From the NCBI GenBank assembly GCA_050261575.1, contig JBLNDL010000033.1, positions 1 to 64,000 on the forward strand: a stretch of DNA of 64,000 nucleotides. The letters are read 5' to 3'. Position numbers and translations under genes: made by a program. Positions 12,439 through 53,576 of this stretch are shown here, piece after piece. Source of the DNA: Sphingomonadaceae bacterium. GTDB taxonomy: Bacteria; Chloroflexota; UBA6077. The stretch's first letter is position 1; every line of letters starts with the position of its first letter. The notes under the pieces were generated by a model. The model ran no database searches and was not told where the DNA came from. It saw nothing but the letters and a program-made list of their open reading frames with translations.

Positions 12439-12456
12439 CGCTCCTGCTACCTTCCG

Positions 12457-12630
12457 TCACCGTCTCGGTCGTTTTCGATCCCACTCGTAGAGGTCGAAGG
12501 CCGCGTACGCGGCCAGAAAGACTCCCAGTATCAACAGCGGTACAGTCAGGAAACCGAGAAAGACGGTCAGGAAGATCAGCAGCCACAGGGCCATGATCAG
12601 GAAGACTCGCAACAGCACGAAGACGATCAT
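12457..12630 (-). CDS. Small hydrophobic membrane protein (57 aa), absent from the ORF track
   Basis: MIVFVLLRVFLIMALWLLIFLTVFLGFLTVPLLILGVFLAAYAAFDLYEWDRKRPRR; ATG overlaps the upstream stop (TGATG); fills the operon gap. Confidence 0.75.
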   Translation of the reverse strand: MIVFVLLRVFLIMALWLLIFLTVFLGFLTVPLLILGVFLAAYAAFDLYEWDRKRPRR

Positions 12631-37562: not shown

Positions 37563-38465
37563 GTGATGCATGATGAGTGGAGACCAGGCTTTCCGGGTTG
37601 GTCGCCGGGTTTCCGAGCCGCACTGGAGAGGATGGCCATCGCGCCTCGACGGCCGGCCCGCGGCCAGCACTCCGGCGCCGTCCGGTCTCGGGTGCGGGGC
37701 CGCGCCCTGGAGTTCGCCGACTACCGTGCCTACTGCCCGGGCGACGATCCCAGGCTGGTGGACTGGCGGGCCTACACCCGGCTGGGACGGCTTTACCTGA
37801 AGCAGTACGAGGAGGATCGCTCCCGCACCATCACGCTGCTGGTGGATGTCAGCGCCTCCCTGGACTGGGGCGAGGGTGAATCCCACAAGGGGCTCTACGC
37901 CCGGCGCCTCGCGGCGGCTCTGGCCTGGGTAGCGGTCAGCCGCCACGAGTCGGTGCGGGCGTTCCTGCTGCGCGACGGCGCCGCCGCGCCGCTGCCGCCC
38001 GCCTCCAGCCGGGATGGCGCCGCCGTGCTCTTCGGCCGGCTCGCCTCCGTCCGGGAGGGCGGGCGGACGGACCTCGGCGCAGCCGTTCGGCGGGCGCTGG
38101 TGGGGCCGGTGGCCGGCCCGGTCCTGCTGCTCACCGACCTTCTCGATCCCTCCTGGCCCGAGGCGCTGGATGCGCTCTCGGTGGGGGGAGAGGGGACCCT
38201 GCTGCAACTGCTGTCGCCGGCCGAGTGGCAGCCTCCGTTGGGCGAGGAGGTGGAGCTGCAGGACGCCGAGAGCGGGGAATTGCGTCCCACCCGTTTGGGG
38301 CCGATAGAGCTGGCAGCCTACCGGGAGCGGTTGGAGGTTTTCCTGGCCCAGGTGCGCAGCCACTGCCACCGCCTCGGGATCCTTCCAGTCGCCTTGAACA
38401 CCGCCACACCGCTGCAGGAGGCAGTGCTGCGGGAGCTGCCCTCCTTGGGCGTGTTGAGGGGGTGA
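37563..38465 (+). CDS. DUF58 domain protein
   Basis: 'EFADYRAY.PGDD.R.VDW', DVSAS; follows moxR. Confidence 0.92.
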   Translation: MMHDEWRPGFPGWSPGFRAALERMAIAPRRPARGQHSGAVRSRVRGRALEFADYRAYCPGDDPRLVDWRAYTRLGRLYLKQYEEDRSRTITLLVDVSASLDWGEGESHKGLYARRLAAALAWVAVSRHESVRAFLLRDGAAAPLPPASSRDGAAVLFGRLASVREGGRTDLGAAVRRALVGPVAGPVLLLTDLLDPSWPEALDALSVGGEGTLLQLLSPAEWQPPLGEEVELQDAESGELRPTRLGPIELAAYRERLEVFLAQVRSHCHRLGILPVALNTATPLQEAVLRELPSLGVLRG

Positions 38466-38469
38466 TGCG

Positions 38470-40293
38470 ATGCCGCTCCTCGAGTCCCCGGGCGCGGTGT
38501 GGCTGCTGGTCACCATTCCGGCCATCGTTCTGCTCTGGATCCTGCGGCCGCTACGCCCGCGGCTGCGGGTACCCAGCCTCTTCCTTTGGCAGGGCTCACC
38601 CGCCGAGCGGCGGTCTGCCCGACCCTGGCAGCGGCTCCGCAACCACCCGCTGCTCTGGATCCAGCTTGCCATCGCTCTGCTGCTGGCGCTGGCCGCCGCT
38701 CGCCCGTTCCTGCCGGCCGACGCCGCCGGCCAGCACCTGATGGTGCTGCTGGACGCCTCCGGCAGCATGAGGGCGCGGGACGTCCCAACGGACCGATTCG
38801 CGGCGGCGCGGTCGACCGTCGTGGATCTGGCCCGAGGGCTGGGGCCTGGCCAGGAGATGACCGTGCTGCGGCTGGACGAACAGCCCAGGGTGCTGGTGGC
38901 TGGTGCGCGCGGCGCCGACCAGGTGGAGCAGGCGCTGTCGGGCGAGCGTCCATCCTACGGGCCGCCCGACGTGGCCGCGGCGCTCGCCCTGGCGGCGGGT
39001 CTTACCCGGGGGCCGGCGGAGTGGGTGCTGGTGGGCGACGGCGGGCTGACCATTCCTGAGGGCGTCCATCGACCGCCAGACACGGGATTCCGCTTCCTGC
39101 CGGTCGGAAGCCCGGCAGGCAACGTCGCCATCACGGGCATGGCGGTGAGGCAAGAGGGGGAGAATCGCGTCCTGCAGGTAGGGCTTCGCAACTACGGCGG
39201 GGGGCCGGCGGTCGGCCGGCTGCAACTGCTGGCCGAGGGCCAGATGGTGGGGGCTCGGGAGTGGCGCCTCGAGGCCGGAGCAGAGGATTACGTCTCCTGG
39301 GGACACCTGCTGTTGGGTCCGGCGTGGTACGAGGCCCGGCTCTCCGGGGTGCCCCAGGGATCGAACGCCCTGGAGCAGGACGACGCGGCCTGGGTGGCGG
39401 CGGCCGACGCTTCGGAGGAGGTGCGGGTGCTGCTGGTGAGCGCGGGCAACGGCTTCCTGGAGCGTATGCTCAGCGTCCACGGAAACGTGAGGGCTTTCAG
39501 CGCGTCCCCGTCCGATTGGCCGGGGGTCGCCTCCCAAGAAGCCGCCTACCCCCTGACGGTGCTGGATCGCCTTTGGCCAGAGCGATGGCCCTCGGGGAGC
39601 GCCCTGGTGGTGGGAGCGCCCGTCGGCGAGTCCTTCCGGCCTCGCGAGGTCTGGCCCCGAACGGACCATCCCCTCCTCCGCTACGTCGACTGGTCGGAGG
39701 TCCGGGTGGGGGAGGCGCGCCGCGCGACGCTGGGCGACGACTGGGAGACGGTGATCGACTCGGACGGCGGACCGCTGCTCGCGGTGCGCACCGATGGCGG
39801 CCGCCGGCAGGCGGTGCTGACGTTCGAGCTGAGTCAGTCGGACCTTCCCCTGCGTCCGGCCTTCCCGGTCCTGATGGCCAACCTGATGGAGTGGCTGCTT
39901 CCTCGACCCGAGACGGCGCCGCGCACGGTCGCGCCCGGCGCTGCCCTCTCGCCGGAGCCGTCGCCGCTGGCGCAGCAACTGTGGGCGGAGGCCGGCGACG
40001 GCACCCGCTACGATCTGGCGCCTCCGTGGCCGCCCCGACCCTTCCGGCCGCCCGAACCCGGCCTGTACAGCGTCGTCCAATCCTGGGAGGGGGAGCGCCA
40101 GCGCTCCCTGCTGGTGGCGAGCGGCTATCACCCTCAGGAGGCGGACTTGAGCCCTCGGTCGATCGACATTCCGGCGGCGAAGGGAGAGGTGTCGGCCCCA
40201 GCCAGGGGCGCCCTCCCCTTCTGGCCCTGGCTGGTTGCCGGGGTGGTGGGGCTTGCACTGGTCGAATGGTGGGTGGATGCGCGTGGACGGTAG
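38470..40293 (+). CDS. BatA N-terminal + vWA domain membrane protein
   Basis: 'PSLFLW', 'LLLALAAARP', DASGSM MIDAS, C-terminal TM ending EWW. Confidence 0.88.
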   Translation: MPLLESPGAVWLLVTIPAIVLLWILRPLRPRLRVPSLFLWQGSPAERRSARPWQRLRNHPLLWIQLAIALLLALAAARPFLPADAAGQHLMVLLDASGSMRARDVPTDRFAAARSTVVDLARGLGPGQEMTVLRLDEQPRVLVAGARGADQVEQALSGERPSYGPPDVAAALALAAGLTRGPAEWVLVGDGGLTIPEGVHRPPDTGFRFLPVGSPAGNVAITGMAVRQEGENRVLQVGLRNYGGGPAVGRLQLLAEGQMVGAREWRLEAGAEDYVSWGHLLLGPAWYEARLSGVPQGSNALEQDDAAWVAAADASEEVRVLLVSAGNGFLERMLSVHGNVRAFSASPSDWPGVASQEAAYPLTVLDRLWPERWPSGSALVVGAPVGESFRPREVWPRTDHPLLRYVDWSEVRVGEARRATLGDDWETVIDSDGGPLLAVRTDGGRRQAVLTFELSQSDLPLRPAFPVLMANLMEWLLPRPETAPRTVAPGAALSPEPSPLAQQLWAEAGDGTRYDLAPPWPPRPFRPPEPGLYSVVQSWEGERQRSLLVASGYHPQEADLSPRSIDIPAAKGEVSAPARGALPFWPWLVAGVVGLALVEWWVDARGR

Positions 40294-40338
40294 ACGAGGA
40301 TCGAGGACCGAGGTCTCGGGACTGGGGGGCGCGCCGCG

Positions 40339-43128
40339 ATGAACCCCCTCGGTCCGCTGCCCTCGGTCCTGTTCACCGATCCGCTGTGGCTGCTGGCGCT
40401 CCCGCCGGCCGCCGCCCTGCTGGTCGTGGCGAGGCTGCCCTGGTGGAGGGCGGCGAGAAGGGCCGGAAAGGCCGCGCTGCGCCAGGAGGCCCGACGGCTG
40501 GGGTTGCGCCTGGCTTGGATCGCCCTGCTGCTGCTGGCCCTATCCGGCCTCACCCTCACCCGGCCTCTGGATCGCCAGGCCCTGCTGTTCGTGGTGGACG
40601 CGTCGGCCAGCGTGGTGGCGGTGCGGGACCAGGCAGAGGCCGCCGTGAGGGCCGCTGCGAGCCGGATGCGGGACGGCGACCTGTTGGGGGTGGTCGCCGC
40701 CGCGGCAGGCGCCCGGGTGGAGGAGGTCCCCACGGACGAACCCCTCTTCGACCGGCTCTCCGTCTCCCTGCCGGACACCGCCACCGACCTGGCGGCAGGG
40801 CTGCGCCTGGCGGGCGCGCTGCTTCCCGAGGGGTACGCTGGCCGGCTGGTGGTGGCCTCCGACGGACGGCAGACTCGCGGAGACGCCCTGGCCGCGGCCC
40901 GGGACCTGGCTGCCAGAGGGATCGTGGTGGACGTGCTTCCCCTCGGTACCGCCGCCGCTCCAGACCTGAGGCTGGAATCCGTGGCGCTGCCGGAGACTGC
41001 CTACAGGGGCGAGGTTGCCACCCTGACGGCCCGGCTGCACTCCGACCGCTCCACCACCGCCACGCTCCGGGTGTACAGGGACGACCAACTGCTGCTGGAG
41101 CGGAGGGTGGATTTGCGCGCTGGGCGGCAGGAGGTGGTGCTCTCGGTGCCCGTCGGCGATCCTGGGCTGCACCGGTATCGGGTGGATCTGTCCTCGCCGG
41201 ACCCGTCGGCGGACGGCACCACGGCGAACAACGCCCTGGGGGCCATCCAGCGGGTCGTCGGCCCGCCCAGGGTGCTGGTGGTCGCCTCTTCCCCCGAGGA
41301 GGCGGGGATGCTGCCCAGCGCGCTCTCGGCCGGTGGGGCCGAGGTGAGCGTGGTCGGTCCGGCGGGGGTGCCGGCCGACCTGGCGGGGTGGGCCCGCTAC
41401 GACTCCGCCGTCCTGGTGGACGTGCCCGCCGAGTCGCTGCCCGCGGGGACGATGGACCTGCTGGAGAGGTACGTGCGGGACATGGGGCGGGGGCTGGTGA
41501 TGACCGGCGGACCCGACAGCTTCGGACCCGGCGGCTACGCCGACACGCCAGTGGAGCGGGCTCTACCGGTGTACATGGATCTGCGGGGGCGTGGGCGGCA
41601 GCCGAGGGTCGCCCTGGCGCTGGTGATCGACAAGTCCGGCAGCATGTCAGGTGCCAAGATGGAGATGGCCAAGGAGGCTGCCGCGCGCAGCGTAGGGCTG
41701 CTACGCCCCGGCGACCGTGCCGCCGTGCTCGCGTTCGACTCGGTGCCGCAGTGGGTGGCGCCGCTGACGCCGGTGGAGGAGCGGGAGAGTCTGGAGCAGG
41801 CTATCGGGAGCATCTACGCAGCGGGTGGGACCGAGATCTACCCAGCGCTGGCGGCCGGGTTCGACGCACTGCGGGATGTGGAGGCCGATGTCAAGCATCT
41901 TCTGCTGCTAACGGACGGGCGATCGGGCTCCGGGGGCGACTACGGGGCGCTGGTGCGGGAGATGAGGGACGCTAGGGTGAGCCTCTCCACCGTCGCGGTC
42001 GGCAGCGACGCCGATACAGGACTGCTGGAGGCGATGGCTCGGGCTGGGCGGGGTCGCTACCACTTCACGGCCGACCCGGCGGACATCCCGCAGATCTTCA
42101 TGCGCGAGACCCTGATGGCCACCCGCACGCTGCTGGTCAACAGGCGCTTCTACCCTGCCGCCGCGTCGGAGGGTCCGTTGCTGAGGGGCGTGCAGGTGGT
42201 GCCCCCCCTGGACGGCTACGTGGCCGTGACGGCCAAGGAGCAGGCCGAGGTGGTGCTGGTCTCGCCGGAGGGCGATCCGGTGCTGGCCACCTGGCAGTAC
42301 GGGCTCGGTCGGGCCGCCGCCTGGACTCCGGACGTGGCCGGCCGCTGGAGCGGCGCGTGGGCGGGGATCCCCACCACCACCATCCTCTGGGGCAACCTGC
42401 TCTCCTGGCTGCTGCCACCCCAGGAGGCCGGGGAGCTGTCGGTTCGGGTCGATGCCGAGGGGGACACGGGCTTCGAGGTGGTGGCGGAGAACCGCGGGGG
42501 ATGGGAGGAGCTTCGATCGACCCGCGCTACGCTGCTGGGTCCCGATGGACGGCGGCGGGAGATGGAGCTTTCTCCTGCGGGGCCGGGCCGCTACAGGGCG
42601 CGAGGGGAGATGCCCGAGCCGGGGGCGTACGTGGTGCAGGTGAGCCAGACCGTCGATGGCGGCGAGTTGCGTGGCGAGGCAGGGTGGGTGGCGCCATACC
42701 CCGCAGAGTACCGCGAGGTGGGGGTGGACCACGCCTTCCTGAGGCAGTTGGCGGCCGCGGGTGGGGGCGAGCTGCTGGGTAAGCCGGAGGAGGCCGCGGA
42801 GCCGCGTGGCCGTACGGCCGTCTCGCGCTGGCCCGGCTGGCCGTTCCTGATAGCGCTGGCTGCCATCCTCTGGCCCCTGGAGATCGCTGCCCGCCGCCTG
42901 GTGGTGCCGGCGGTGGCGCGGGGACGCGGGGAGGCGGGAACAGGCACACTCCCTCTCCCTCTGGGAGAGGGCCAAGGTGAGGGAAAGGACGCTGGGGACC
43001 GCAGATCCCCTCTCCCACTCCGAGAGGGTGAGGGTAAGGGCCGAGGGTCTGCGCCCGCCCTGGACACGGCGGGGCGGCTGCTGGAGCGCAAGCGCGCCCT
43101 GCGGGAGGGGCGGAGGGAGAAGGGTTAG
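40339..43128 (+). CDS. Double-vWA protein with an inserted GATase1-like domain
   Basis: DASAS and DKSGS MIDAS motifs; 'GG..SFG.GGY..TP.E..LPV'; terminal TMs. Confidence 0.88.
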   Translation: MNPLGPLPSVLFTDPLWLLALPPAAALLVVARLPWWRAARRAGKAALRQEARRLGLRLAWIALLLLALSGLTLTRPLDRQALLFVVDASASVVAVRDQAEAAVRAAASRMRDGDLLGVVAAAAGARVEEVPTDEPLFDRLSVSLPDTATDLAAGLRLAGALLPEGYAGRLVVASDGRQTRGDALAAARDLAARGIVVDVLPLGTAAAPDLRLESVALPETAYRGEVATLTARLHSDRSTTATLRVYRDDQLLLERRVDLRAGRQEVVLSVPVGDPGLHRYRVDLSSPDPSADGTTANNALGAIQRVVGPPRVLVVASSPEEAGMLPSALSAGGAEVSVVGPAGVPADLAGWARYDSAVLVDVPAESLPAGTMDLLERYVRDMGRGLVMTGGPDSFGPGGYADTPVERALPVYMDLRGRGRQPRVALALVIDKSGSMSGAKMEMAKEAAARSVGLLRPGDRAAVLAFDSVPQWVAPLTPVEERESLEQAIGSIYAAGGTEIYPALAAGFDALRDVEADVKHLLLLTDGRSGSGGDYGALVREMRDARVSLSTVAVGSDADTGLLEAMARAGRGRYHFTADPADIPQIFMRETLMATRTLLVNRRFYPAAASEGPLLRGVQVVPPLDGYVAVTAKEQAEVVLVSPEGDPVLATWQYGLGRAAAWTPDVAGRWSGAWAGIPTTTILWGNLLSWLLPPQEAGELSVRVDAEGDTGFEVVAENRGGWEELRSTRATLLGPDGRRREMELSPAGPGRYRARGEMPEPGAYVVQVSQTVDGGELRGEAGWVAPYPAEYREVGVDHAFLRQLAAAGGGELLGKPEEAAEPRGRTAVSRWPGWPFLIALAAILWPLEIAARRLVVPAVARGRGEAGTGTLPLPLGEGQGEGKDAGDRRSPLPLREGEGKGRGSAPALDTAGRLLERKRALREGRREKG
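42951..43040. repeat. CCCTCTCCC...GAGAGGG REP-like palindromes inside the 3' end of the vWA gene
   Basis: Two tandem copies; a related inverted copy lies at about 58383-58415. Confidence 0.6.
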
Positions 43129-44138
43129 ACGGGGCGCAGACACCTGGTGTCACGGTCGAGCAAACCCGCCAACTGCCGGGCGGCCTCGTCCGGATCCGTT
43201 CCCGTTTGCAGTCGGTAGCAGTCGCAGGATGCCGCCGTGTCCATCATCGTTTCGAAGTGATCCGTCGCCAGGCCGCGGTTCGCGGGCGGCATGCTGTGCT
43301 CCAGCAGGGCGAGGAACGCCTCGGACTTCCCCATCGGCTGGAGGAGGCTGGTGGGGGTTCGTGCGATGCTCGGGAACACCAGCAGTCGGGGCCGGGCCTG
43401 CTCGGCGAGACAGCCGGGGAAGAGGGCGTCGGCGGGGAATGAGTACTTGTTCCTCTCGTTGGGGGCGTGCCCTGCCAGGAATGCCAGCTCCCGGAAGAAG
43501 CCCAAACCATCGGCGCAGACGTTGATGTCCTCGGGGAAGGCCAGCACCTGAACCCCTCCCTCACGCTTCGTGAGAAGGGGCATGTCGTCGGAGAGGAGCC
43601 GCAGGCCGGCCCGCAGTAGGGCTATCGAGAGGGTGGACTTGCCGCTGCCGGGCAGGGCAGGCAGTATCAGGGCGTGTCCGTTCGACTCCAGGGCCGCGCC
43701 GTGGATGGGATACAGCCCTCGCAGACGGAGGAACTCCAGTACCATCGGCAGGATGGCGAAGTGCTGGATCGACCACAGCGCACCCGCGCGCTCGCGGACC
43801 ACGTACACCGCCATCCGACGGGCGTGGAAGTCGGCAACGCTGAGGGAGAGCCCGCGAGCCTCCAGGAAGAGCCGGCCGTCCAGGGCGCTGTGGCGAAGCC
43901 CGCCCTGCTCGTTCACCACGGTCGCATCGGGCGGCACGATCAGCGGGAGCGACTCGACCACTTCCATCTGGCAGTTCAGTGTCTCCCGCTTGGGCGCCCC
44001 CGGAGCCGCCTCGGCATACCGGTGGAACAGCCCGTCCATCGCCTCGGCCAGGTGAGGGTGGTTCGCCCATGCCTCGATCCGCAGCCCGTGCACGCAGTAC
44101 GTCAGACCCTCCAGTGTCGTGACCCTGGCCGATCGCAT
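43125..44138 (-). CDS. HprK-related kinase (RiPP-associated type)
   Basis: IHGAA, Walker A 'PGSGKST', 'LLSDD' motif; immediately downstream of the precursor genes. Confidence 0.85.
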   Translation of the reverse strand: MRSARVTTLEGLTYCVHGLRIEAWANHPHLAEAMDGLFHRYAEAAPGAPKRETLNCQMEVVESLPLIVPPDATVVNEQGGLRHSALDGRLFLEARGLSLSVADFHARRMAVYVVRERAGALWSIQHFAILPMVLEFLRLRGLYPIHGAALESNGHALILPALPGSGKSTLSIALLRAGLRLLSDDMPLLTKREGGVQVLAFPEDINVCADGLGFFRELAFLAGHAPNERNKYSFPADALFPGCLAEQARPRLLVFPSIARTPTSLLQPMGKSEAFLALLEHSMPPANRGLATDHFETMMDTAASCDCYRLQTGTDPDEAARQLAGLLDRDTRCLRPV

Positions 44139-44289
44139 CCCCTCGTTCCTCCCGCGGAGTGTTCACGGATGGCGAGAGCCGATCGCACGGACGGCCGGCC
44201 GGTGGACGGCCCGACCCGTGCTGCCCTCGCCCATCGCTCTGGATCGATAGAATTCGGCCGGGGGTTACCCCCGGCCGGTGGCGGACCCG

Positions 44290-44385
44290 CTAGTAGTGGT
44301 TGATCGAGTCGTAGTCGTTGAACAGGGCCGTCAGGCCGCTGGGCTTCCCGAGGGACATCGGTCGGAGCGATACGTATCTCTTCAT
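44290..44385 (-). CDS. Putative RiPP precursor A2: MKRYVSLRPMSLGKPSGLTA-LFNDYDSINHY
   Basis: 31-aa ORF with AAAGAGGA SD; leader paralogous to A1; not in the ORF track. Confidence 0.7.
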   Translation of the reverse strand: MKRYVSLRPMSLGKPSGLTALFNDYDSINHY

Positions 44386-44474
44386 GTCGCATCCTCTTTC
44401 TCTGGCGCAGCGAGTCCGCCGGGCAGCCGGTCGGGCAGCCCGACGGCCTCGCCTTCGCTAGCCCCGACGACTGT

Positions 44475-44564
44475 CTACCAACCACCGTTGTAGGGGATGG
44501 TGGCCGTCAAGCCGCTCAACTTGCCCAGCAGCGCGAGGCGCGGCGATACGTAGCTCCTCTTCAC
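44475..44564 (-). CDS. Putative RiPP precursor A1: MKRSYVSPRLALLGKLSGLTA-TIPYNGGW
   Basis: 29-aa ORF, GTG start after AAAGGAGGTG; lasso-type leader YxxPxLxxxGxxxxxT. Confidence 0.8.
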   Translation of the reverse strand: MKRSYVSPRLALLGKLSGLTATIPYNGGW

Positions 44565-44961
44565 GAATCTCACCTCCTTTCTCGTCCCTATGCTTGGATA
44601 GCCGAGGGCGCCCGTCTCCAAAGTGGAGAGGGTCGCGGAGCGTGGATCCGCACCGGCGGTTCGCGCCTCCGAGTTGGGGGACACCACGTTGGAGTGCATC
44701 GTGTCTCCCCTCGCAACCCCCTCGGCCATGGTCCGACCCTCGCCGCCAAGGGGCCGGCTCGGCCGTCCGGATCGGCTCTCGACAGCGGGTACAACCGGTA
44801 GGGGTGGCTGCCCAGCGTACCGACCCGCCGGTTGCCGCGCCACTCTAGCTGGGGCCGATGAATCCAGCATTAATCGGCCGAGCGGTATTGTGTCAACCGT
44901 GTAAGCACTCACCACGCGCCGATTTCATCTCCCGTTCAATTCCCTGGACTAGTCTGGAGCC

Positions 44962-45984
44962 GTGAAGAAGGCGATCGAAGTCAGAGACCTGTCCAAGAGC
45001 TACCCGAAGCCCATGAGCTTTCGGGAGATCCTCCGGCATCGCAGGTGGCGATCGAAGACGGATGCCCTGCGGGGGGTCGGCTTCCACGTGGCCGAGGGAG
45101 AGGTGTTCGGCCTGCTGGGCCCCAACGGAGCGGGGAAGACCACCCTGATCAAGATCCTCTGTACCCTCGTCCTTCCGACCGAGGGGTCGGCCTCCGTCAA
45201 CGGCTTCGACGTGGTTCGGGACCCTGCGGCCGTGCGGAGGAGCATCGGATACGTGGTTGCCGACGAGCGCAGCTTCTACTGGCGGCTGACGGGACGCCAG
45301 AACCTGCGCTTCTTTGCCACGCTGAACAACCTGATCGGCAAGGAGGGAGAGCGGCGAGTGGAGGAGGTCGCGGATCTGGTCGGCCTTCGCGAGGAGCTGG
45401 ACACGCCCTTCCTCCACTACTCCACGGGCACCAAGCAGAAGATGGCCATCGCCCGGGGGATGCTCACCGATCCGCCCATCCTGCTGCTGGACGAGCCCAC
45501 CCGCAGCCTGGACCTGCCGACGGCCAGAGCCGTACGCGGTTTCGTTAAGAGCGGGCTTGCTGCCCAGGGGAGAACGGTGCTGATAGCCACCCACAACATG
45601 GAGGAGGCGTCGGAGCTGTGCCAGCGGGTGGCGGTGATCGACCGGGGGCGGCTCAGGGCGTGGGGGACACCGGCGGAGATCGCCCAGGCCGTGGACTGGA
45701 CGGGGAAGAAGGTACTCCTGGAGGTAGACGGGTGGACGGAGGGGGTCGCGACTCGGGTGCGCCTCCTGCCGGGGGTGCGGGAGTTGGCACTGCTGCCGCG
45801 GTCCTGCGGCGAGAACGGCAGGGCGCTGAGGCTACGGATCGGCCTGCGGGAGGGCGCCGATTCCGTCGCCGAGGTGATAGAGACGGTGGTGCGCTCGGGC
45901 GGCCGGATCGTCTCGTTCCAGGAGGAGGCGCCCACCCTGGCCGACCTCTTCCTCCGCATCACAGAGGAGGAGCCCAGCCCGTGA
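44962..45984 (+). CDS. ABC exporter ATP-binding protein
   Basis: GPNGAGKT, YSTGTKQ, LLLDEP, ATH. Confidence 0.94.
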   Translation: MKKAIEVRDLSKSYPKPMSFREILRHRRWRSKTDALRGVGFHVAEGEVFGLLGPNGAGKTTLIKILCTLVLPTEGSASVNGFDVVRDPAAVRRSIGYVVADERSFYWRLTGRQNLRFFATLNNLIGKEGERRVEEVADLVGLREELDTPFLHYSTGTKQKMAIARGMLTDPPILLLDEPTRSLDLPTARAVRGFVKSGLAAQGRTVLIATHNMEEASELCQRVAVIDRGRLRAWGTPAEIAQAVDWTGKKVLLEVDGWTEGVATRVRLLPGVRELALLPRSCGENGRALRLRIGLREGADSVAEVIETVVRSGGRIVSFQEEAPTLADLFLRITEEEPSP

Positions 45985-46796
45985 CGCTGCTGCTCCACAA
46001 GGTGGCGGCCTTCGTGGCTCGGGACCACACCGAGGCCACCAGCTACCGCTTCGCCTTCGCCATGCGGTACGTCAACGCCCTCTTCACGGTGCTCACCTTC
46101 TACTTCGTCTCCGGGCTGGTCGAGGGCGCAGCTACCCCCCACCTGGCCGAGTACGGCGGGGACTACTTCGCCTTCGTCCTTGTGGGCATCGCGCTGTCCG
46201 GCTACCTGAGGACCTCCCTGACCAACTTCTCCTACCTGATACGGAACGCCCAGATGACGGGCACCATCGAGGCGTTGCTCGTGACACAGACGGAGCTGCC
46301 GACGGTCGTCCTGGCCTCCTCCGTGTACAGCTTCGTCGCCACCTCCACCACGGTGCTGCTCTACCTGGCGGTGGGTGCCCTGCTGTTCGGTGTGAACCTG
46401 AGCGGGGCCAACTTCCTCGCCGCGCTGCTGGTGCTGCTCCTCTCCATCGCCGCGTTCAGCAGCATCGGGATCGCCTCGGCCTCCTTCATCGTGGTCTTCA
46501 AGAAGGGAGATGCGGTGCTCGGCGCGATCACCCAGATCTCCATGCTGCTCGGAGGGGTCTACTATCCCCTCTCCATCCTGCCCGTCTGGCTCCAGGGAGC
46601 CGCGGCCCTGCTTCCCATCACCTACTCCCTGCGGGCGATGCGCTATGCGCTGTTCAGACCGGAGGAGATGGGGTCGGTGGCGCTGGATGTGGCCATCCTG
46701 GCCGCATTCGCGGCCGTTGCCCTGCCGTCGAGCGTGTGGCTCTTCGGCAGGGCAGTGCGGATGGCGAAGTCCTCGGGCAGCCTGGGCCACTACTAA
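45981..46796 (+). CDS. ABC-2 permease
   Basis: About 6 TMs, 'GVYYP...LP.WLQ......P.TY'; GTGA overlap with the ATPase stop. Confidence 0.9.
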   Translation: MTLLLHKVAAFVARDHTEATSYRFAFAMRYVNALFTVLTFYFVSGLVEGAATPHLAEYGGDYFAFVLVGIALSGYLRTSLTNFSYLIRNAQMTGTIEALLVTQTELPTVVLASSVYSFVATSTTVLLYLAVGALLFGVNLSGANFLAALLVLLLSIAAFSSIGIASASFIVVFKKGDAVLGAITQISMLLGGVYYPLSILPVWLQGAAALLPITYSLRAMRYALFRPEEMGSVALDVAILAAFAAVALPSSVWLFGRAVRMAKSSGSLGHY

Positions 46797-47074
46797 GCGG
46801 GCGTCTCTAGATAGAGCGCACGCCTCCCGCTGGGGGAGTCGACACGGACTAGTGATAGCTGCTTCGGGTGGTGGGGCCGGTGGGACACCCTCTGCCAAAG
46901 GGAGCGCGTGAACGTGCCCTACGGCACGTTCACGGGGTGGGGGCCGTAGGGGCCGCCGGCCTCCCGGCGGGGGGGATAAGCCCCCGCCTCCCCTTCGTCG
47001 TCGAATTGCGGAACGCTGCACCTGGAGCGAGCGGCCTGAGGTGGCTTGCTCCAGGTGCCATCGACTCGCTTCTT

Positions 47075-47761
47075 CTAGTGGGTATGGGCTGGTGCGACCT
47101 GCCCCTCGCCCGTGGTGTGGCCGCCCTCCGCCGGGGCACCCTCCCCGTGGACTGCGTTCCCTTCGGCGGCCTCGAAAAGGGCGAGGACGTACTTCTGGAA
47201 CAGCAGTTCGGCCTCTACCTTCTCACGGTTTGCCGCCACAGAGCCCTCCTTGGCCGCCAGCTCCCTGGCCTCCGCCACGGCGTGGAACTTCTCGGCGATC
47301 CCGTCCTTCACCGCCCGGTCCAGCAGGGCGTAGGTCTCGTCCAGGGAGCCAGTCTCCAGCGCCTTGTCGGCGGCGGTGAGCGCCGGGCCAAAGTCGCTCT
47401 CCGTCTTCAGGCCGGTGTAGGCAGCCCCCTCGCCGTGCCGATGCAGCCGGACGGCGGTCTCGTAGAAGAAGCGCTCTGCCAGCTTCTGGGCCTCGCCGCC
47501 CAGCCGGCGTACCTCCTGAGTGTGCTGGAAGACCGCGGAAAGCTCGGCCTCCGACTCGGGCTGGACGTATGGCAGGACCAGGTCGACGTCGTTCGCTTCC
47601 AGCGCCTTCTGCGCGGCGGCGACCACCGGACCGTTCACGGAGTCGCAGTGGGCCTCGGCGGATGGTGCCGGGGCGAAGGCCAAGGCGGTGACGCCGATCG
47701 CCAGGGCGAAGGTTAGAGCGCCCAGCTTGAGTCTCAGGGCCTTTCTGGTCAGGTGCAGCAT
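47075..47761 (-). CDS. Secreted protein, DUF6448-like
   Basis: Signal peptide then 'AHCDS.NGPVV', 'F.ET.VRLHR.GEGA.YTGLK'; His-rich tail. Confidence 0.75.
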   Translation of the reverse strand: MLHLTRKALRLKLGALTFALAIGVTALAFAPAPSAEAHCDSVNGPVVAAAQKALEANDVDLVLPYVQPESEAELSAVFQHTQEVRRLGGEAQKLAERFFYETAVRLHRHGEGAAYTGLKTESDFGPALTAADKALETGSLDETYALLDRAVKDGIAEKFHAVAEARELAAKEGSVAANREKVEAELLFQKYVLALFEAAEGNAVHGEGAPAEGGHTTGEGQVAPAHTH

Positions 47762-47875
47762 CTCGATTGTCTCCTTTTCTGCTCTTGTCGTTTTGTGCCG
47801 GCGGTGAACCGGTTGCGGATCGTCGCCGGACCCTTTCCCTGTGCTGCATTCTGCACCGTCGCAGGAAGACCTTCA

Positions 47876-47889
47876 TTGACGTGGATCAA
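47876..47889 (-). promoter_or_regulatory. Crp/Fnr-family box TTGAC-N4-ATCAA
   Basis: One mismatch from the FNR consensus; centred about -41.5 relative to a CAGAAT -10 at 47853-47848. Confidence 0.65.
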
Positions 47890-48035
47890 GTCTTCTGAGT
47901 TCATCCTCGATGCGCGAGGCCCCTGGAGAAGCTCCAGGGGCCTCTATGTGAAGGGGAGGAGGGATCCTCCCCGTCGATTGACGTCTCTTGGACGGACGAG
48001 CGGGCTGGCCGGACGCCTGCTGCCTCCGGAGCAGC

Positions 48036-49259
48036 CTACCCGTCCAGCAGTCGCTTCTCCCCTTCCAGCGCTCGGATGCCGGTGGCGTCCTGTGTCACCT
48101 CCAGGCAGCCCAGGTACTTCCCCTCCCTGCGGACCGCGTAGTAGCGGATCACGATGAAGCGCCCGCCAGACTGGATCCAGAACTCGGCGGTGTCGCGCCT
48201 GCCGCTCCGGAAGTCCTCCAGGATCCGGTTCACCACGTGGACGCTCTTCTCCGGGTGGCACTGCTGCACCTTGCGACCGATGATCGCCGTCGCTCGGGGG
48301 AAGACCCTCTCCTTGCCGTTGCTGAAGTAGCGCACTTGGTCCTGATCGTCCACGAAGGTGATATCCACGGGCAGGCTGTTCAGTATCGGCTCCAGGGCGG
48401 CTAGCGGTAGGCTCCCGGTCTCGAAGGAGACCACGTCCTCTCTCCCCGCCTCGGCGGATGTGCGCGGCGCCTCCTGTCGGGTCTGTCCGGTCGTGGGCGG
48501 CACGACCTTCCAGTAGCCGATCTCACCGAACTGCCGGATGGTATTCTCCCACTCCTCCTCCGTGAGCACCCTGAGGGCCGTGGGGAAGAGGATGTTGTTC
48601 TCCTTGTGGAAGTGGCTCGCGAGCATGGTCGCCAGCGCCTCCGCCGCCTCCTTTAGCCGCGGGACGAGGGTTGCCAGAGATGTCCCGTCGGCAGCCTCGA
48701 CGGCCGCGAAGAACCCCTTCTTGATCGCCCTGATCCTGTCGTGCTCGCTCCACATGATGGCCGGTGGCTGTACGATCCCGTGCTTCTCCAGGTAGGGGAA
48801 GAGGACGTTCTCCTCGCGCAGGTAGTGGTTCTCCGACTCCTTGAACTCGCCGGCGATCGACCTCAACCGCTGTAGCGGTGCGGACGCCGCCTCCTGATCG
48901 GGGGCAGCCGCGATCTCCTCGACCACCGCTTCGAGGTCGGCGGCCAGATCCAGGAGAAGCTCGTGCTCCCTCAGGAGGATCTGGATCGGGTGATGCGGAG
49001 GCGCAGCGGCCTGCTCTCTCTCCAGCGCTTCCTGGAACACGGCCAGGTGGACGTCGCAGAGCCGCTCCAGCTCCTCCCTGGGCATCCCCTCGTCGACCAG
49101 CTCGCCCTCGATCCGCGCGATCTCCTCCGCAGTAAGGGTCCGCAATAGCCCCGCGGCTTCCTTCTTGGCGTTTTCCGGATCGGTGCCCTCGTGCAGTGCC
49201 CTGATCAGTCGCTTCAGCGTGGTCTTCCTGCCGATTGCATCGGCAAGCAGCTCGCTCAT
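48036..49259 (-). CDS. DUF438 / hemerythrin / PAS domain protein
   Basis: LCDVH, HY.REEN.LFP, MWSEHD, KENNILFP; C-terminal PAS 'ITFVD..D.VRYF...IIGR.VQ.CHP'. Confidence 0.88.
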   Translation of the reverse strand: MSELLADAIGRKTTLKRLIRALHEGTDPENAKKEAAGLLRTLTAEEIARIEGELVDEGMPREELERLCDVHLAVFQEALEREQAAAPPHHPIQILLREHELLLDLAADLEAVVEEIAAAPDQEAASAPLQRLRSIAGEFKESENHYLREENVLFPYLEKHGIVQPPAIMWSEHDRIRAIKKGFFAAVEAADGTSLATLVPRLKEAAEALATMLASHFHKENNILFPTALRVLTEEEWENTIRQFGEIGYWKVVPPTTGQTRQEAPRTSAEAGREDVVSFETGSLPLAALEPILNSLPVDITFVDDQDQVRYFSNGKERVFPRATAIIGRKVQQCHPEKSVHVVNRILEDFRSGRRDTAEFWIQSGGRFIVIRYYAVRREGKYLGCLEVTQDATGIRALEGEKRLLDG

Positions 49260-49401
49260 GGCATTCTCTCCTTCGACTTCGATGTCCAGACGGCCCCGTC
49301 TGGGCCATCCGCTCGTGCTGGCCATGAGGATGGGGTAGGGAACGCGAGGTGTCCGCGACTTTTGTCACAAGCCGCGTCGCTCGGTCGTGGGGGGCGTGGC
49401 G

Positions 49402-50604
49402 CTACCGTATGGAGCGCACGTAGCGGAGCGCCCTGATCAACCGGACCGGCTCCAGCAGTCTGTAGCTGTGTCTGAGATGGCGCGGCCTCGGCATCAGGAG
49501 CTGCAGGAGGGATCCGAGACTGGTTCGGTCGGTGGAAACCAGCTTGGCCAGGGTCGAGGGGAGCGGAGCGGGATCCTCGTCGTTGGCGAGAACACGCTCC
49601 AGGGCCGCTGCGGCAAGTGCTGGCCGCAGGGGTTTGCCGCCGGGGCTCTCGATCAGGTCCGGGGGCAGTTCCGTCCCGAAGAGGGCAGCGGCGACGGCCA
49701 GTGAGTATCGAAGGCAGAGGGCTGCCCGGAGGCGACCGGCCTCGCGGGCGAGCGCTTCCCAGTCCAGCCGGTCGCGGTGCCGCTCCACCAGCTCGTGGAG
49801 GTCACTCAGTCGCGACAGCCCCACACCGAAGCCGTCGTTGTAGGCCATGTGGGTGCAGAGGTGGATGACCTGGTGGATGGGGCTGAGGACACGCCCCTCG
49901 ACCCCGTCCACTGGGATGGCCTCGGAGTGCTGCAGCATCTCCGCCACGTCGACGTGGAAGGGTGCGCGCTTGCGTGCCAGGCCCCAGTGGATCTCGACCA
50001 CGGCGGCTCGGCCACCCCCATCGCGCAGGCGATACTTCTTCTCGTACCACTCAGGTGGCCACTTGCCGGCCGGCCACTCCTCCTCCGCCGGAAGGTAGCC
50101 CAGGGACAGCAGGACCCGCTCGGCGGCCGCGCGATCCTCTCTCTGAACCAGCAGATCGAGGTCGCGTAGCTGCCTCAAGGCGGGGTCCGGGTAGACGGTG
50201 TGCAGGAGGGCCGCGCCCTTCAGCAGGACGGCGGCGATCCCTTCGGTGGCGAGCCCGTCGACGACGCGTCGCAGCTCCCGCTGCCAGAGCAGGGTGGAGA
50301 TGCCGTTCAGGAGGTAGGCGGCGTGGAGTCGGGACAGGGCGCCTGCTGGGACCTGGGGGGCGAAGGGTGGCAGCGAGAGGGTGCGGTAGACCAGTGGCGC
50401 GACTCGATGCCCCTCCGCTCGGGATACCAGCCGCTCCCAATCGAGCGGCTCCGCCAGCAGCAGCTCGACCCGTTCGCGAGCGGCCCCATCCAGGTGGATG
50501 CGAGCAGCGGCGGCGAGCAGCCTCTCCTCCGCGGGCCTGGAGGCGAGGAGGGCTCGCAACTCCTCGATCGGCCTGTCCGTGCTAGGCGCGGTGGCACTAC
50601 CCAT
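49402..50604 (-). CDS. Nucleotidyltransferase (NTP_transf_5-like)
   Basis: 'LLKG..L...YP....R...DLDLLV', 'VEIHW'; overlaps the B2 gene end. Confidence 0.88.
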   Translation of the reverse strand: MGSATAPSTDRPIEELRALLASRPAEERLLAAAARIHLDGAARERVELLLAEPLDWERLVSRAEGHRVAPLVYRTLSLPPFAPQVPAGALSRLHAAYLLNGISTLLWQRELRRVVDGLATEGIAAVLLKGAALLHTVYPDPALRQLRDLDLLVQREDRAAAERVLLSLGYLPAEEEWPAGKWPPEWYEKKYRLRDGGGRAAVVEIHWGLARKRAPFHVDVAEMLQHSEAIPVDGVEGRVLSPIHQVIHLCTHMAYNDGFGVGLSRLSDLHELVERHRDRLDWEALAREAGRLRAALCLRYSLAVAAALFGTELPPDLIESPGGKPLRPALAAAALERVLANDEDPAPLPSTLAKLVSTDRTSLGSLLQLLMPRPRHLRHSYRLLEPVRLIRALRYVRSIR

Positions 50605-51100
50605 TCCCGTGGTCCCAACTCGGGCGAGACAGGGGCTCCGAGCCGCCTCGACGCGCCTTCGGCGATGCCGGGGGAGGCTCGGGCAGATGCCAGACCTGGA
50701 GGTAGTCCACCTCCGGCGCGCCACGTTCCATGAAGGGTCGATCGTCGAGCACCAACCACCCGTGGGCGTCCACCGACCCGTCGGGGTTTCGCCGGATCCC
50801 GAAGGCGATCCGCACGGGGTAGCCCAACCTGGTGCAGAAGTAGTAGAGGGTGAGAGAGCGTAGCAGGCAGTGGCCGAAGAAGAGGATGGGGGCGCGCCGC
50901 ATCACCCCGTCCACGTGGCGCACCACCCTCCGGACTTCCGAGATCTCCACGGTGGGCGGTGTGGTGGTGGGCGTGAGCCACCCCACCACTCTCCTCACCT
51001 TCACGAAGTGAAGGGCGGCGTTTAGCCCCACGAGCAGTCCGACGATCCGCAGCGTGAGCCCGAGGTCTGCCCGAGCGACCGCTCTCACCTCTCCGATCAT
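50597..51100 (-). CDS. Lasso peptide B2-type leader peptidase (transglutaminase-like)
   Basis: 'CLLRSL' catalytic Cys and 'AHGW' His; follows the RRE gene. Confidence 0.88.
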   Translation of the reverse strand: MIGEVRAVARADLGLTLRIVGLLVGLNAALHFVKVRRVVGWLTPTTTPPTVEISEVRRVVRHVDGVMRRAPILFFGHCLLRSLTLYYFCTRLGYPVRIAFGIRRNPDGSVDAHGWLVLDDRPFMERGAPEVDYLQVWHLPEPPPASPKARRGGSEPLSRPSWDHGNG

Positions 51101-51110
51101 TGCCAACCGA

Positions 51111-51380
51111 CTAGACGACCAGTCCCTGCTCTCGCAGCTCGTGGAGCAGCGCCACGACGTCCTGCTCCACCTGTTCGGCAGGGGCGTCGTACTCCTCGGC
51201 GATCCTGGAGGCGATCTCCCCGGCGGTGGCCTGGCCGTCGATCAGTTCCCAGATACGGGTGCCCACCTCGTTCAGGGAGTAGTAGTTCTCGCTCTTCGCG
51301 CTCAGCAGCACCGTCTCCTCGCCCATCTTTCGCCAGACCACGTCGGAGGCTCTGGATGGGACGACGTCTGTACCCTGCAT
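51111..51380 (-). CDS. PqqD-family RiPP recognition element (lasso B1-type)
   Basis: 'ETVLL.....YYSLNEVG.RIWELIDG...I..EYD....V..DV...L..L...GL'; GAGGAGG SD. Confidence 0.92.
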   Translation of the reverse strand: MQGTDVVPSRASDVVWRKMGEETVLLSAKSENYYSLNEVGTRIWELIDGQATAGEIASRIAEEYDAPAEQVEQDVVALLHELREQGLVV

Positions 51381-51638
51381 CAAGGCTACCCCTCCTCGGA
51401 GAAGGTCGGTAGTTGCGCCGTCGCCCACAGGCTAGCAGGGAGGGGGAGGCGGAGCATGAACATTCGAGGGGATGGGCGTGGGGCCGGGGTTTCGTTTCTG
51501 TAATCCGGGCGCGCCGTCTAAGAAGTAGGGCGGGGGACACGTGAGGCGAGCGGGCGCAGTGCCGCGTGTCCCCCGCCGGCCCGCCCCACGTGTGAGGGGG
51601 GGGCCGGCCACTGCGGCGGGACGGGAGGGACGTGCCGC

Positions 51639-53576
51639 TCAGTCCAGCGTGATGCGCAGGATGCGATCGTCCTCTGCGGCCGGGTTCCCCCTTCCGTCCC
51701 GGTTGCTCGTGGTGAAGTAGATCAGCCCATCGGGTCCCTGCGTAACCTCTCGCAGCCGCCCGAAGTCCCCCTCGAACAGCCGCTCCTGGGCCACTACCTG
51801 CCGGGAGTCCGGCCCGCCGAGCACCACTCGATGGAGGTGCCCGCCCCGAAGGGTGGCGAAGAAGAGGCTACCCGTCCACTCGAAGAGGCGGTCGGCGTCG
51901 TAGAAGGTGGCTCCGGCGGGCGCCACTGCGGGGTTGAAGACCAGGATGGGATCGATGAAGCGCGAGTCTCCGGCGGCGCCCTGGACCCCCGGCCACCCGT
52001 AGTTGCCCCCAGCCTGGAGGACGTTCACCTCGTCGTTGCCCGAGGGTCCGTGCTCCGTGCTGAAGAGCTGCCCCGTCCCAGGCTGGAATGCCAGCCCCTG
52101 TGGGTTCCGGTGTCCGAAGGTGAAGACGGGTGACCCCGGGAACGGGTTGTCCTCGGGGATGGTGCCGTCCGGGTTGATCCGCAGCACCTTTCCGGCGACG
52201 GAGCCGATGTCCTGGGCCAGGCTGGAGGCGGCGGCATCCCCCGTTGTCACGTACAGCTTGCCGTCCGGCCCAAACCTCAGCCGCCCGCCGTCGTGTATCG
52301 TGGCGGCCGGTATCCCGTCCAACAGCACTGTCTCGCCGCCCGCCTGGTTGCCCTGTACGGTGAGCCGCGAGAGCCGGTTCGCAAGCTGCCCCGGGCCAGC
52401 CTCGCGAGTGTACATGACGTAGATCTGCCCGTTCTGCGCGAAGTTGGGGTCCAGGGCCAGGCCCATCAAGCCCGATTCCGCGGTGGTCACCGCCGGTAGG
52501 ACGGCGACGGGGTCCGGAAGGAGCTGCCCATCCACGATCACCCGGATCCGCCCCGGCCGCTCGGTGAAGAACAGCCGGCCGTCGGGAGCGAAGGCGAGCG
52601 CCCAGGGGGTGTTCAGCCCGGAGGCCACCACCTCCACCCTCGGCTGGAAGCTCTGTGGAGCCACCGGCTGCTGAGGCTCGAACGCGTTCTGGAGGTCGCT
52701 GCTGGGGAGTTGATCCAGCCGGTTGAGCCCCCGCGGCTGGGTGTTGTTGTACTGCCGGAGGAAGGGGCTTCCGGCGAGCTGAGCCTCCAGATCGGCCGGC
52801 AATCCCGTTCCCGTCAGCACGCCCTTGAACCAGTCGCCCAGTAGCAGACCCTGGGTGAGACCGGTCGTCGCGTCGAAGTGCATGATGCCCCGCTGGAACC
52901 GCTGGTACACGAAGTTGCGGTTGTTGGGATCGAAGGCGGGGCGGCTCGTCGGTGCCCCCCAGATCTCCAGGTTGAGCAGCGGGAGCAGATCGGGGTTGCC
53001 GCCTCCTTGAGGAAAGGCGTCGGCCAGCCCGACTGTCGACTCGAAGGTGCGCATGAAGCCGACGTCGAGCCCCTCGAACTGATCGGGCGCGTTCGCCCGA
53101 GTGAACTCGATAATCGCCCGATCGTAGTCCGGCTGTCCCTCCACGGGGGTGGACTGCACCAGTCCGGCGTCGGGCGCAGGAAACTGGGAGCCGTTGATGG
53201 CCGTCACCGCTAACAGTCCCGGGTCGAGGAGGTTGAGCAGCCTGACTCCCCCGTCGCCGCCCTGCTGCATCACCCCGCGCTGAAAGACCTGGACCGCGAA
53301 ACCCTCCAGGACGAAGCTCCTGGACACGGGAAAGCCGAAGGTTCTGACACCACCCCGGTGGGTGAAGTAGTCGAAGAAGGCGTCGTTGTCGATCCTGAAC
53401 CCCGTTTCCTGGAAGAAGCGGGGGTCCTGGACCTGCTGCTGTGGTGCGGCCCCGCCGGCTGCAGGGGCTGCCGCCATCACCACGAAGAGCGCGATCAGTG
53501 CCGGAATCAGGGGCGGAGGCGGGATTCTGCTCACGGTTCTCCTCTGTTGTGCGAGTGTTGTCGGTTGCGAAGGCAT
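51639..53576 (-). CDS. Secreted PQQ-dependent sugar dehydrogenase (GSDH) with an N-terminal surface domain
   Basis: PWALAF.PDG, HDGGRL.FGPDG.LY.TTGD, GHRNPQG, EHGP...DEVN; signal peptide. Confidence 0.88.
   Translation of the reverse strand: MPSQPTTLAQQRRTVSRIPPPPLIPALIALFVVMAAAPAAGGAAPQQQVQDPRFFQETGFRIDNDAFFDYFTHRGGVRTFGFPVSRSFVLEGFAVQVFQRGVMQQGGDGGVRLLNLLDPGLLAVTAINGSQFPAPDAGLVQSTPVEGQPDYDRAIIEFTRANAPDQFEGLDVGFMRTFESTVGLADAFPQGGGNPDLLPLLNLEIWGAPTSRPAFDPNNRNFVYQRFQRGIMHFDATTGLTQGLLLGDWFKGVLTGTGLPADLEAQLAGSPFLRQYNNTQPRGLNRLDQLPSSDLQNAFEPQQPVAPQSFQPRVEVVASGLNTPWALAFAPDGRLFFTERPGRIRVIVDGQLLPDPVAVLPAVTTAESGLMGLALDPNFAQNGQIYVMYTREAGPGQLANRLSRLTVQGNQAGGETVLLDGIPAATIHDGGRLRFGPDGKLYVTTGDAAASSLAQDIGSVAGKVLRINPDGTIPEDNPFPGSPVFTFGHRNPQGLAFQPGTGQLFSTEHGPSGNDEVNVLQAGGNYGWPGVQGAAGDSRFIDPILVFNPAVAPAGATFYDADRLFEWTGSLFFATLRGGHLHRVVLGGPDSRQVVAQERLFEGDFGRLREVTQGPDGLIYFTTSNRDGRGNPAAEDDRILRITLD

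Follow-up and report, generated by a model that had tools for sequence, protein, structure and literature searches.

Lasso-type leader-processing genes without a cyclase in a Chloroflexota genome: a locus predicted to make short linear peptides

Lasso peptides belong to the RiPPs, peptides made on the ribosome and modified after translation. Their precursors carry a leader with the motif YxxPxLx3Gx5Tx, with a Thr at position -2, ahead of a core that comprises a 7- to 9-residue ring, with a small N-terminal residue (Gly, Ala, Ser or Cys) and an Asp or Glu at positions 7 to 9, followed by a tail. Here we describe a locus that possesses the leader-processing genes of a lasso system and no recognisable ring-forming enzyme. 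It occupies positions 43125 to 51428 of the first 64,000 nucleotides of contig JBLNDL010000033.1 (assembly GCA_050261575.1, soil Chloroflexota), a stretch referred to throughout as the window, and encodes a RiPP recognition element (RRE, or B1 protein), a B2 leader peptidase, an HprK-like kinase, a nucleotidyltransferase and two short precursors.

The tailoring enzymes of this set have counterparts in lasso biosynthesis. In the pseudomycoidin pathway, the kinase PsmK phosphorylates the C-terminal Ser of the peptide, and PsmN, whose catalytic residues are D134 and D136, is needed to add a hexose to the phosphorylated form (PMC6993621). Linear polyphosphorylated peptides (LPPs) of Bacillota, reported by Popov et al. 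(Nat Commun 2026, PMC13381572), are the products of RRE-dependent, cyclase-less clusters. According to that article, LPP clusters often lie beside paeninodin-like lasso clusters in Bacillota capsule loci, and LPPs are called restricted to this phylum. Their precursors have 35 to 200 residues and a YxxP leader with the motif YxxPxVLxHQxIxFETxxS; the leader consensus [Y/W]xxPx[L/V/I/A/F/Y] is given in the same source; Ser3 of a 45-residue core is polyphosphorylated, and S3T and S3Y variants are left unmodified. In searches of the open-access literature, cyclase-less clusters with an RRE, a kinase and a transferase were found described only in this article, and no description of a cyclase-less cluster containing a B2 protein was found.

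The genes of the window that carry the argument are the following:

51111..51380, minus strand: discrete RRE (B1, PqqD family); PF05402, 84 bits; the longest open reading frame (ORF) extends to 51428
50597..51106, minus strand: lasso-type B2 leader peptidase (transglutaminase-like Cys protease); PF13471, 53.5 bits; NF033537, 50.3 bits, cut-off 33
49402..50604, minus strand: PF14907 nucleotidyltransferase (PsmN/LppN-like); 200.5 bits; the longest ORF begins at 50724
44475..44564, minus strand: precursor A2, 29 residues, GTG start; predicted core TIPYNGGW
44290..44385, minus strand: precursor A1, 31 residues, ATG start; predicted core LFNDYDSINHY
43125..44138, minus strand: HprK-like P-loop kinase (PadeK/PsmK/LppK-like), 337 residues; TIGR04352, 86.2 bits, cut-off 200

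These genes form two minus-strand groups within 43125-51428, one with the RRE, B2 and transferase (51380-49402) and one with the precursors and the kinase (44564-43125). We lean towards reading them as a working, cyclase-independent RiPP pathway, with a front end that would have been borrowed from lasso biosynthesis and with short, linear, decorated peptides as its probable products. The genes named in an initial annotation of the window were found at or near the places it had given them, and the RRE end that it had proposed, 51380, coincides with a conserved ATG preceded by a Shine-Dalgarno sequence.

The assignment of the leader-processing enzymes to the lasso type is supported by several observations. 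The best NCBIfam matches of the RRE are the lasso PqqD models NF033536 (64 bits) and NF033530 (54.8 bits), although neither score reaches its cut-off. RREs of the lasso and LPP types (9x90_B, 5v1u and 9x8z_B) come out as its best sequence matches in the Protein Data Bank (PDB). The Met at 51380 is invariant in all six aligned RREs and GAGGAGGGG lies upstream of it; because of the conserved Met and this Shine-Dalgarno sequence, the ATG at 51380 is preferred over the longer reading frame and is probably the RRE start. Cys80 and His115 of B2 are likewise invariant (6/6 aligned B2s), with an acidic residue 12-13 positions past the His in all six. B2 is the sole PF13471 match in the genome, and one of its orthologues bears the source label 'lasso peptide biosynthesis B2 protein'. 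The transferase likely starts at the ATG at 50604, overlapping the B2 stop, and its translation contains a DLD motif that, at an alignment-free guess, could be the catalytic D134/D136 of PsmN. Within this group of RRE, B2 and transferase genes, start codons overlap or abut, as in a translationally coupled operon. The AlphaFold2 model of the kinase (pLDDT 89.5) has a PEPCK/HprK-type fold, and a fold search with the model returned PEPCK chains, a result that fits the P-loop kinase superfold and does not discriminate substrates. For B2, the kinase and the nucleotidyltransferase, no usable match came from searching the PDB by sequence. The kinase, RRE and B2 are each single-copy in the genome, and all three lie within the window together with the only strong nucleotidyltransferase match.

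The absence of a lasso cyclase, which the initial annotation had noted for the 64 kb, extends to the whole genome (G000; 3.72 Mb, 103 contigs, 100% complete, 4.76% contamination), where searches with Asn synthase and lasso cyclase profiles revealed no cognate cyclase. PF00733 has five matches in the genome, one of them over cut-off and located on contig C28, and the lasso cyclase model NF033535 has no match over its cut-off of 525 bits; its best score, 240 bits, belongs to the same C28 protein (274 bits when the protein is scored by itself). This protein passes TIGR01536, the equivalog model for glutamine-hydrolysing Asn synthase (533 bits, cut-off 267), and starts with MCGI, keeping the N-terminal Cys of the glutaminase nucleophile. 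No RRE, B2, kinase or nucleotidyltransferase occurs within 17 kb of it. On these profile matches the C28 protein is a housekeeping AsnB, and by the same measure the genome has no lasso cyclase. It is hardly credible that this enzyme acts as a cyclase in trans on the window precursors to give true lasso peptides. It would be the one candidate, as the sole PF00733 protein over cut-off and with a partial NF033535 score, whereas its AsnB equivalog match, its N-terminal Cys, a score far under the cyclase cut-off and its distance from any RiPP gene argue for a metabolic role, and the precursor cores (8-11 residues starting with Thr, Leu, Gln or Gly, with neither Asp nor Glu in TIPYNGGW) do not have the geometry that the lasso core rule calls for.

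The two precursor genes have strong Shine-Dalgarno sequences, AAGGAGGTG placed 7 nt ahead of the GTG start of A2 and AAGAGGA ahead of the ATG start of A1. The leader of A2 matches YxxPxLx3Gx5Tx exactly and that of A1 matches it in part. A predicted cut after the Thr-x junction gives the cores TIPYNGGW (8 residues) and LFNDYDSINHY (11 residues), in agreement with the initial annotation, which had named the same two. Alignment of eight complete precursors, the two of the window and six from the related contigs L098 and L100 described below, revealed an invariant leader Tyr, Gly, Leu and Thr and a single invariant core residue, a Tyr. The six cores of the relatives are GGAPLPYGRQS, QAYGPIRVIHA, QAYGPIRIVLL, QAYGPVRTS, LIYNFRTA and TGIILPYLSR; all eight cores have 8-11 residues, in precursors of 29-40 residues, and QAYGPIRVIHA and QAYGPIRIVLL have no hydroxyl residue besides the Tyr. 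Across the eight, the first core residue is Thr, Leu, Gln or Gly, and none of the cores has lasso features. Judged against the lasso rule, the window cores are predicted to be unable to form a lasso, being too short and starting with Thr or Leu, with the 8-mer also lacking both Asp and Glu. When 78,018 six-frame ORFs of the genome were scanned for the motif, no further plausible precursor emerged.

The module is also found in other sequences. A kinase search among 5.8 billion clustered proteins gave 166 matches; among the best 120, which were listed, there are 13 orthologues at 54-81% identity, one labelled Chloroflexota, followed by a gap to identities of 42% or less. For B2, 13 orthologues at 55-73% identity were obtained (14 proteins, from 254 candidates). 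Four kinase/B2 pairs give the same longest contig (175649, 12232, 18659 and 3716 bases), which suggests that paired orthologues share contigs; a contig of 26785 bases is another of the longer orthologous ones. Three orthologous metagenome contigs of 1.4-4.3 kb could be read. On L098, four precursors and a radical SAM/SPASM gene precede the genes for the kinase, RRE, B2 and transferase. On L100, one precursor precedes the kinase and RRE, and another stands between the RRE and B2, with the transferase last. L099 has the kinase and then a truncated precursor, which was the only addition from a local hmmsearch with the precursor alignment over 187 loci. On both L098 and L100 the kinase-RRE-B2-transferase order is contained within about 2.5 kb, as a single compact operon. 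The kinase motifs PGSGKST (Walker-A-type) and LSDD are kept in 14/14 orthologues.

Close relatives were scarce in other searches. With the kinase alone, a contig scan brought up no relative, and scans with a kinase alignment, which returned mostly proteobacterial HprK_rel_A loci (best 80 of 547 and best 80 of 455), gave only L098-L100 as close contigs among the loci kept. Among GTDB representatives related to the window genome, matches of any kind occur in 11 of 41, the best non-self E-value being 1.3e-12, and no close orthologue was found. Matches occur in 2 of 66 genomes of the class (at E-values of 1e-20 or less), 6 of 401 in a sample of the phylum, and 1 of 6 in the class of genome G090, again without a close orthologue in any of these sets. 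In one further genome (G228, 92% complete), the RRE, B2, kinase and the start of the transferase lie on a 2.8-kb contig; no cyclase over cut-off was found in that genome, which has two AsnB-like ORFs, unexamined, on other contigs.

Could the locus instead be a decayed or orphaned lasso cluster that has lost its cyclase, with the remaining genes drifting and no defined product? Its genome has no cyclase, its module is split into parts 5 kb apart and precursor A1 departs from the leader motif, all of which decay would explain. The comparative data make it very improbable. The four-gene module occurs with non-lasso precursors on other contigs at kinase identities of 54-81%, neither the catalytic Cys and His of B2 nor the P-loop of the kinase varies, strong ribosome-binding sites are retained at both precursors, and cores of 8-11 residues in 8/8 complete precursors amount to a consistent design. 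Decay is thus disfavoured because the module, the catalytic motifs and the short non-lasso cores are all conserved in relatives, whose cores likewise cannot form a lasso, and this possibility, which the initial annotation had left standing, falls away.

Genome G090, also of Chloroflexota, offers a direct comparison between the two kinds of set. The first 15,000 positions of its contig C24 hold two RiPP sets in tandem, the first cyclase-less and orthologous to that of the window, the second a complete lasso set. In the first, a kinase (41% identical to that of the window), an RRE and a B2 stand at the contig start; GT2, WecG/TagA and Bac_transf genes come next, along with the gene for a PF14907 transferase. 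The second has its own RRE, B2, kinase, ABC (ATP-binding cassette) exporter and transferase, a cyclase that scores 821 bits on NF033535, and a precursor with a WxxP leader and a core that begins with Gly1 and ends in Ser. Window proteins match the cyclase-less set better than the lasso set (E-values of 7e-36 versus 3e-4 for the kinase, 3e-17 versus 3e-14 for the RRE, and 9e-24 versus 7e-6 for B2). Because G090 has a cyclase-less set next to a separate and complete lasso set, the cyclase-less set is a lineage paralogous to the lasso machinery, as opposed to a lasso cluster that has broken down. The tandem sets also mirror the discrimination between Y and W leaders in the LPP/paeninodin pairs of Bacilli (PMC13381572).

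The sugar-related genes of G090 bear on a different function, in which a phosphorylated peptide supplied by the module would prime or decorate a glycan of the cell surface, with the kinase and transferase belonging functionally to polysaccharide biosynthesis. Besides the interleaving of the G090 cyclase-less set with GT2, WecG/TagA and Bac_transf genes, an LPP-like set in genome G198 lies beside Bac_transf and GT1 genes, a proteobacterial PqqD_rel_X/HprK_rel_A pair with a nucleotidyltransferase-like ORF lies inside an XrtA/PEP-CTERM exopolysaccharide locus of Duganella, and LPP and paeninodin clusters are situated in capsule loci (PMC13381572). The window locus, however, has no nearby glycosyltransferase and has a dedicated exporter instead, and none occurs in the readable parts of L098 and L100, so that a role in glycan synthesis is considered unlikely for this family.

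The exporter genes, and a hairpin in the precursor operon, complete the locus:

44962..45984, plus strand: ABC transporter ATPase (DrrA-like); PF00005, 102.8 bits; TIGR01188, 254 bits, below cut-off
45981..46796, plus strand: ABC-2 permease; PF01061, 68.7 bits; GTG start at 45981 overlapping the ATPase stop
44255..44278, minus strand: GC-rich 10-bp hairpin directly 3' of precursor A1; -28.1 kcal/mol

The exporter pair (44962-46796) is divergent from the precursor genes, AGAGGAGGAG stands upstream of the permease GTG, and adjacency is what assigns the exporter to the cluster. The hairpin has a z-score of -2.1, with 3 of 200 shuffles folding equally well, and might possibly, on this weak evidence, be an attenuator ahead of the kinase gene. 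A scan for promoters and terminators gave no signal above shuffle expectation. The gene order is not peculiar to the window assembly, because a 14,468-base contig of run X2 (independent Logan assembly, soil), a run that may belong to the same study as the window, bridges 42000-51531 with the same gene order. No RNA run was listed among the sequencing runs that contain the locus.

Other genes surround and interrupt the locus. The two RiPP gene groups are separated, at 47075-49325, by the genes for a secreted DUF6448 protein, whose tail is rich in His and Gly, and for a DUF438-hemerythrin-PAS_10 protein. Immediately upstream of the RRE, at 51639-53576, is a glucose/sorbosone dehydrogenase family protein (PF07995, 316 bits), of a family annotated as dependent on pyrroloquinoline quinone (PQQ); its position beside the RRE is probably a coincidence, and a PQQ role for the RRE was rejected on the finding that the genome has no PqqE over cut-off. 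Adjoining the kinase gene is a plus-strand run of large ORFs (37563-43128), the last with VWA and GATase1-like domains, which presumably represents a BatA/aerotolerance-type operon and is apparently unrelated to the RiPP locus.

The intervening proteins were also considered as a source of ring chemistry. The peptides could be macrocyclised or cross-linked by an enzyme that is not recognisable as a lasso cyclase, whether a neighbouring protein or one encoded elsewhere, and would then constitute a new cyclic RiPP. Tyr is a cross-link partner in other RRE-dependent pathways, those of PQQ and mycofactocin, and the invariant core Tyr could serve in the same way; on L098 a radical SAM/SPASM enzyme separates the precursors from the kinase, and the window has the DUF6448 and DUF438-hemerythrin-PAS proteins inside its locus. 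The L098 radical SAM enzyme, however, lacks an orthologue in the window genome (best match E 9e-6, 27 bits), the DUF6448 and DUF438-hemerythrin-PAS proteins are not present in the readable parts of L098 and L100, there is no ATP-grasp, YcaO or similar gene at the window locus, and no enzyme other than the kinase, the nucleotidyltransferase and B2 is shared by every member. A cross-linked product is therefore judged improbable. The L098 enzyme (856-1863; PF04055 and PF13186) has as its best NCBIfam match the YydG peptide-epimerase family (79.7 bits, below cut-off), and may add D-residues or cross-links in the L098 member only.

For a pathway that ends in linear peptides, a sequence of steps can be proposed by analogy with the lasso and LPP systems. 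The RRE would bind the YxxPxLx3G leader of both precursors, and the HprK-like kinase would phosphorylate a hydroxyl residue of the core with the leader still attached. The invariant Tyr is tentatively preferred as the phosphosite, since no other hydroxyl residue is shared by the whole set of family cores, and Ser or Thr, where present, would be a conservative alternative. The PF14907 transferase would then add a further group to the phosphorylated peptide, comparable to the hexose of PsmN, and B2, with the leader presented by B1, would cut after the Thr-x junction. The linear 8- and 11-residue products would leave through the adjacent ABC-2 exporter, and no macrolactam ring would be formed.

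Several points weigh against this proposal. The module's two halves lie 5 kb apart in the window, with the unrelated-looking DUF6448 and DUF438-hemerythrin-PAS genes between them, because of which co-regulation of the halves is not evident. Only three orthologous contigs could be read, all of them short; L098 and L100 end within the transferase gene, so that a cyclase farther downstream is possible there, and in G090 the contig begins partway through the cyclase-less set. The leader of A1 keeps the Tyr, Gly, Leu and Thr, with Pro and Leu swapped relative to the RRE-binding motif, and owing to this swap A1 may bind the RRE poorly. With regard to the chemistry, characterised HprK-like RiPP kinases act on Ser, and phosphorylation of Tyr would be new for enzymes of this type. 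The LPP kinase LppK did not accept S3T or S3Y cores, and LppN was inactive in a heterologous host, leaving the role of the transferase unclear even for LPPs (PMC13381572).

A narrower version of the proposal can be put forward tentatively, in which the locus would represent a distinct RiPP class that combines lasso B1 and B2 proteins with the absence of a cyclase and makes linear peptides of 8-11 residues. In these, an HprK-like kinase would O-phosphorylate, possibly polyphosphorylate, the single invariant Tyr, and the PF14907 transferase would cap it afterwards. If that is correct, the kinase would be the first of the HprK-type peptide kinases to act on Tyr, and a lasso leader peptidase would for the first time have a natural role outside lasso biosynthesis; the products could be phosphoglycosyl peptides or small signals for export. 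The lasso B1/B2 pair would be a portable module, re-used in evolution without the ring-forming enzyme, and genome-mining rules that equate any B1/B2 locus with 'lasso' would mislabel such loci. The range of linear phosphorylated peptides would grow beyond Bacillota to take in Chloroflexota, where the leader peptidase would be a second and unrelated one; this would point to convergent assembly around a core of RRE, kinase and transferase. The ultra-short cores with their single invariant Tyr, the 8-mer above all, would also provide a simple, testable system for HprK-like RiPP kinases and for the still-unexplained PF14907 transferases.

Among described gene sets, the HPr-rel-A system of Proteobacteria (TIGR04352 and TIGR04353) resembles the window locus in having an HprK-related kinase, a PqqD-family chaperone, a PF14907-like ORF (by phmmer) and no cyclase. 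The window proteins fall below both cut-offs (86.2 versus 200 bits for TIGR04352; 26.6 versus 35 bits for TIGR04353), the similarity of the kinases is limited to residues ~145-330, and phmmer found no B2 in any of 80 proteobacterial loci (the best 80). One such locus, on a Duganella sp. chromosome (L096, 4356-13444), and most of the others (L018-L097) place HprK_rel_A, PqqD_rel_X and the PF14907-like ORF in an XrtA/PEP-CTERM exopolysaccharide locus that also has a tyrosine autokinase, a chain-length determinant, an export protein and PepA. Leader peptidase and precursors are not evident in these loci, and an AsnB-like ORF, unexamined, occurs in only 4 of the 80 (L023, L046, L049 and L081). A further kinase-linked locus, L183 (contig C579 of genome G057, 8962-12644), combines an HprK-like kinase 31% identical to that of the window with a YxxP-leader precursor that has a Lys/Glu-rich 28-residue core. 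It also encodes an RRE domain and a RiPP maturase of the ATP-grasp type (TIGR04187, 135 bits, below cut-off), and on these domains looks like a kinase-tailored graspetide-like cluster.

With the lasso clusters of the paeninodin and pseudomycoidin type, the window shares B1, B2, the HprK-like kinase, the PF14907 transferase and the ABC exporter, and the leader YxxPxLx3Gx5Tx with Thr at -2 is also that of the window family. Unlike those clusters, it has no cyclase; its cores are too short and have no N-terminal Gly, Ala, Ser or Cys paired with an Asp or Glu for a ring, and five of the eight family cores lack the C-terminal Ser. The RRE, the B2 and the leader are those of a lasso cluster; the cyclase is missing and the cores do not fit.

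The likeness to LPPs is closer in overall logic, as far as PMC13381572 describes them. Both systems combine a discrete RRE with a kinase of HprK-like type, a nucleoside triphosphate transferase and no cyclase, together with a YxxP-type leader and a predicted linear product, and in both the cyclase-less set can adjoin a lasso set with a WxxP leader (in G090 and in the LPP/paeninodin pairs of Bacilli). An LPP-like set occurs in Chloroflexota as well, at 9160-16482 of contig C30 of genome G198 (L184), with a 58-residue precursor bearing a YQAPKL leader, an RRE, a kinase of HprK-like type, an MsbA-like ABC exporter and a signal-peptidase-I-like protein (TIGR02228, 37 bits, below cut-off), and with a second kinase and Bac_transf and GT1 genes nearby. 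The differences lie in the remaining parts. The window has the lasso B2 cysteine protease where LPP clusters have a SipW-like signal peptidase I, and TIGR02228 has no match over cut-off in the window genome (best 18.9 bits, on contig C42) and none in the window. Export would be by a separate ATPase (PF00005) and ABC-2 permease (PF01061) as opposed to an MsbA-like protein. Precursors of 29-40 residues with cores of 8-11 compare with 35-200 and 45 for LPPs, and the window precursors (29 and 31 residues) share only the YxxPxL part of the LPP leader motif. Their cores have Pro or Asn at position 3 in place of the LPP Ser3, with Tyr as the invariant core residue, and the host phylum is Chloroflexota, not Bacillota. 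The initial annotation had read the locus as a possible new RiPP class making non-lasso, probably linear peptides; its description of the architecture agrees with the missing cyclase and the non-lasso cores, and the novelty was overstated, because cyclase-less LPP clusters, in which an RRE accompanies an HprK-like kinase and an NTP transferase, were published in 2026 (PMC13381572). The locus is best placed beside these systems, as a variant distinct from LPPs that is not the first of its kind and that has a B2 protein in place of the SipW-like peptidase.

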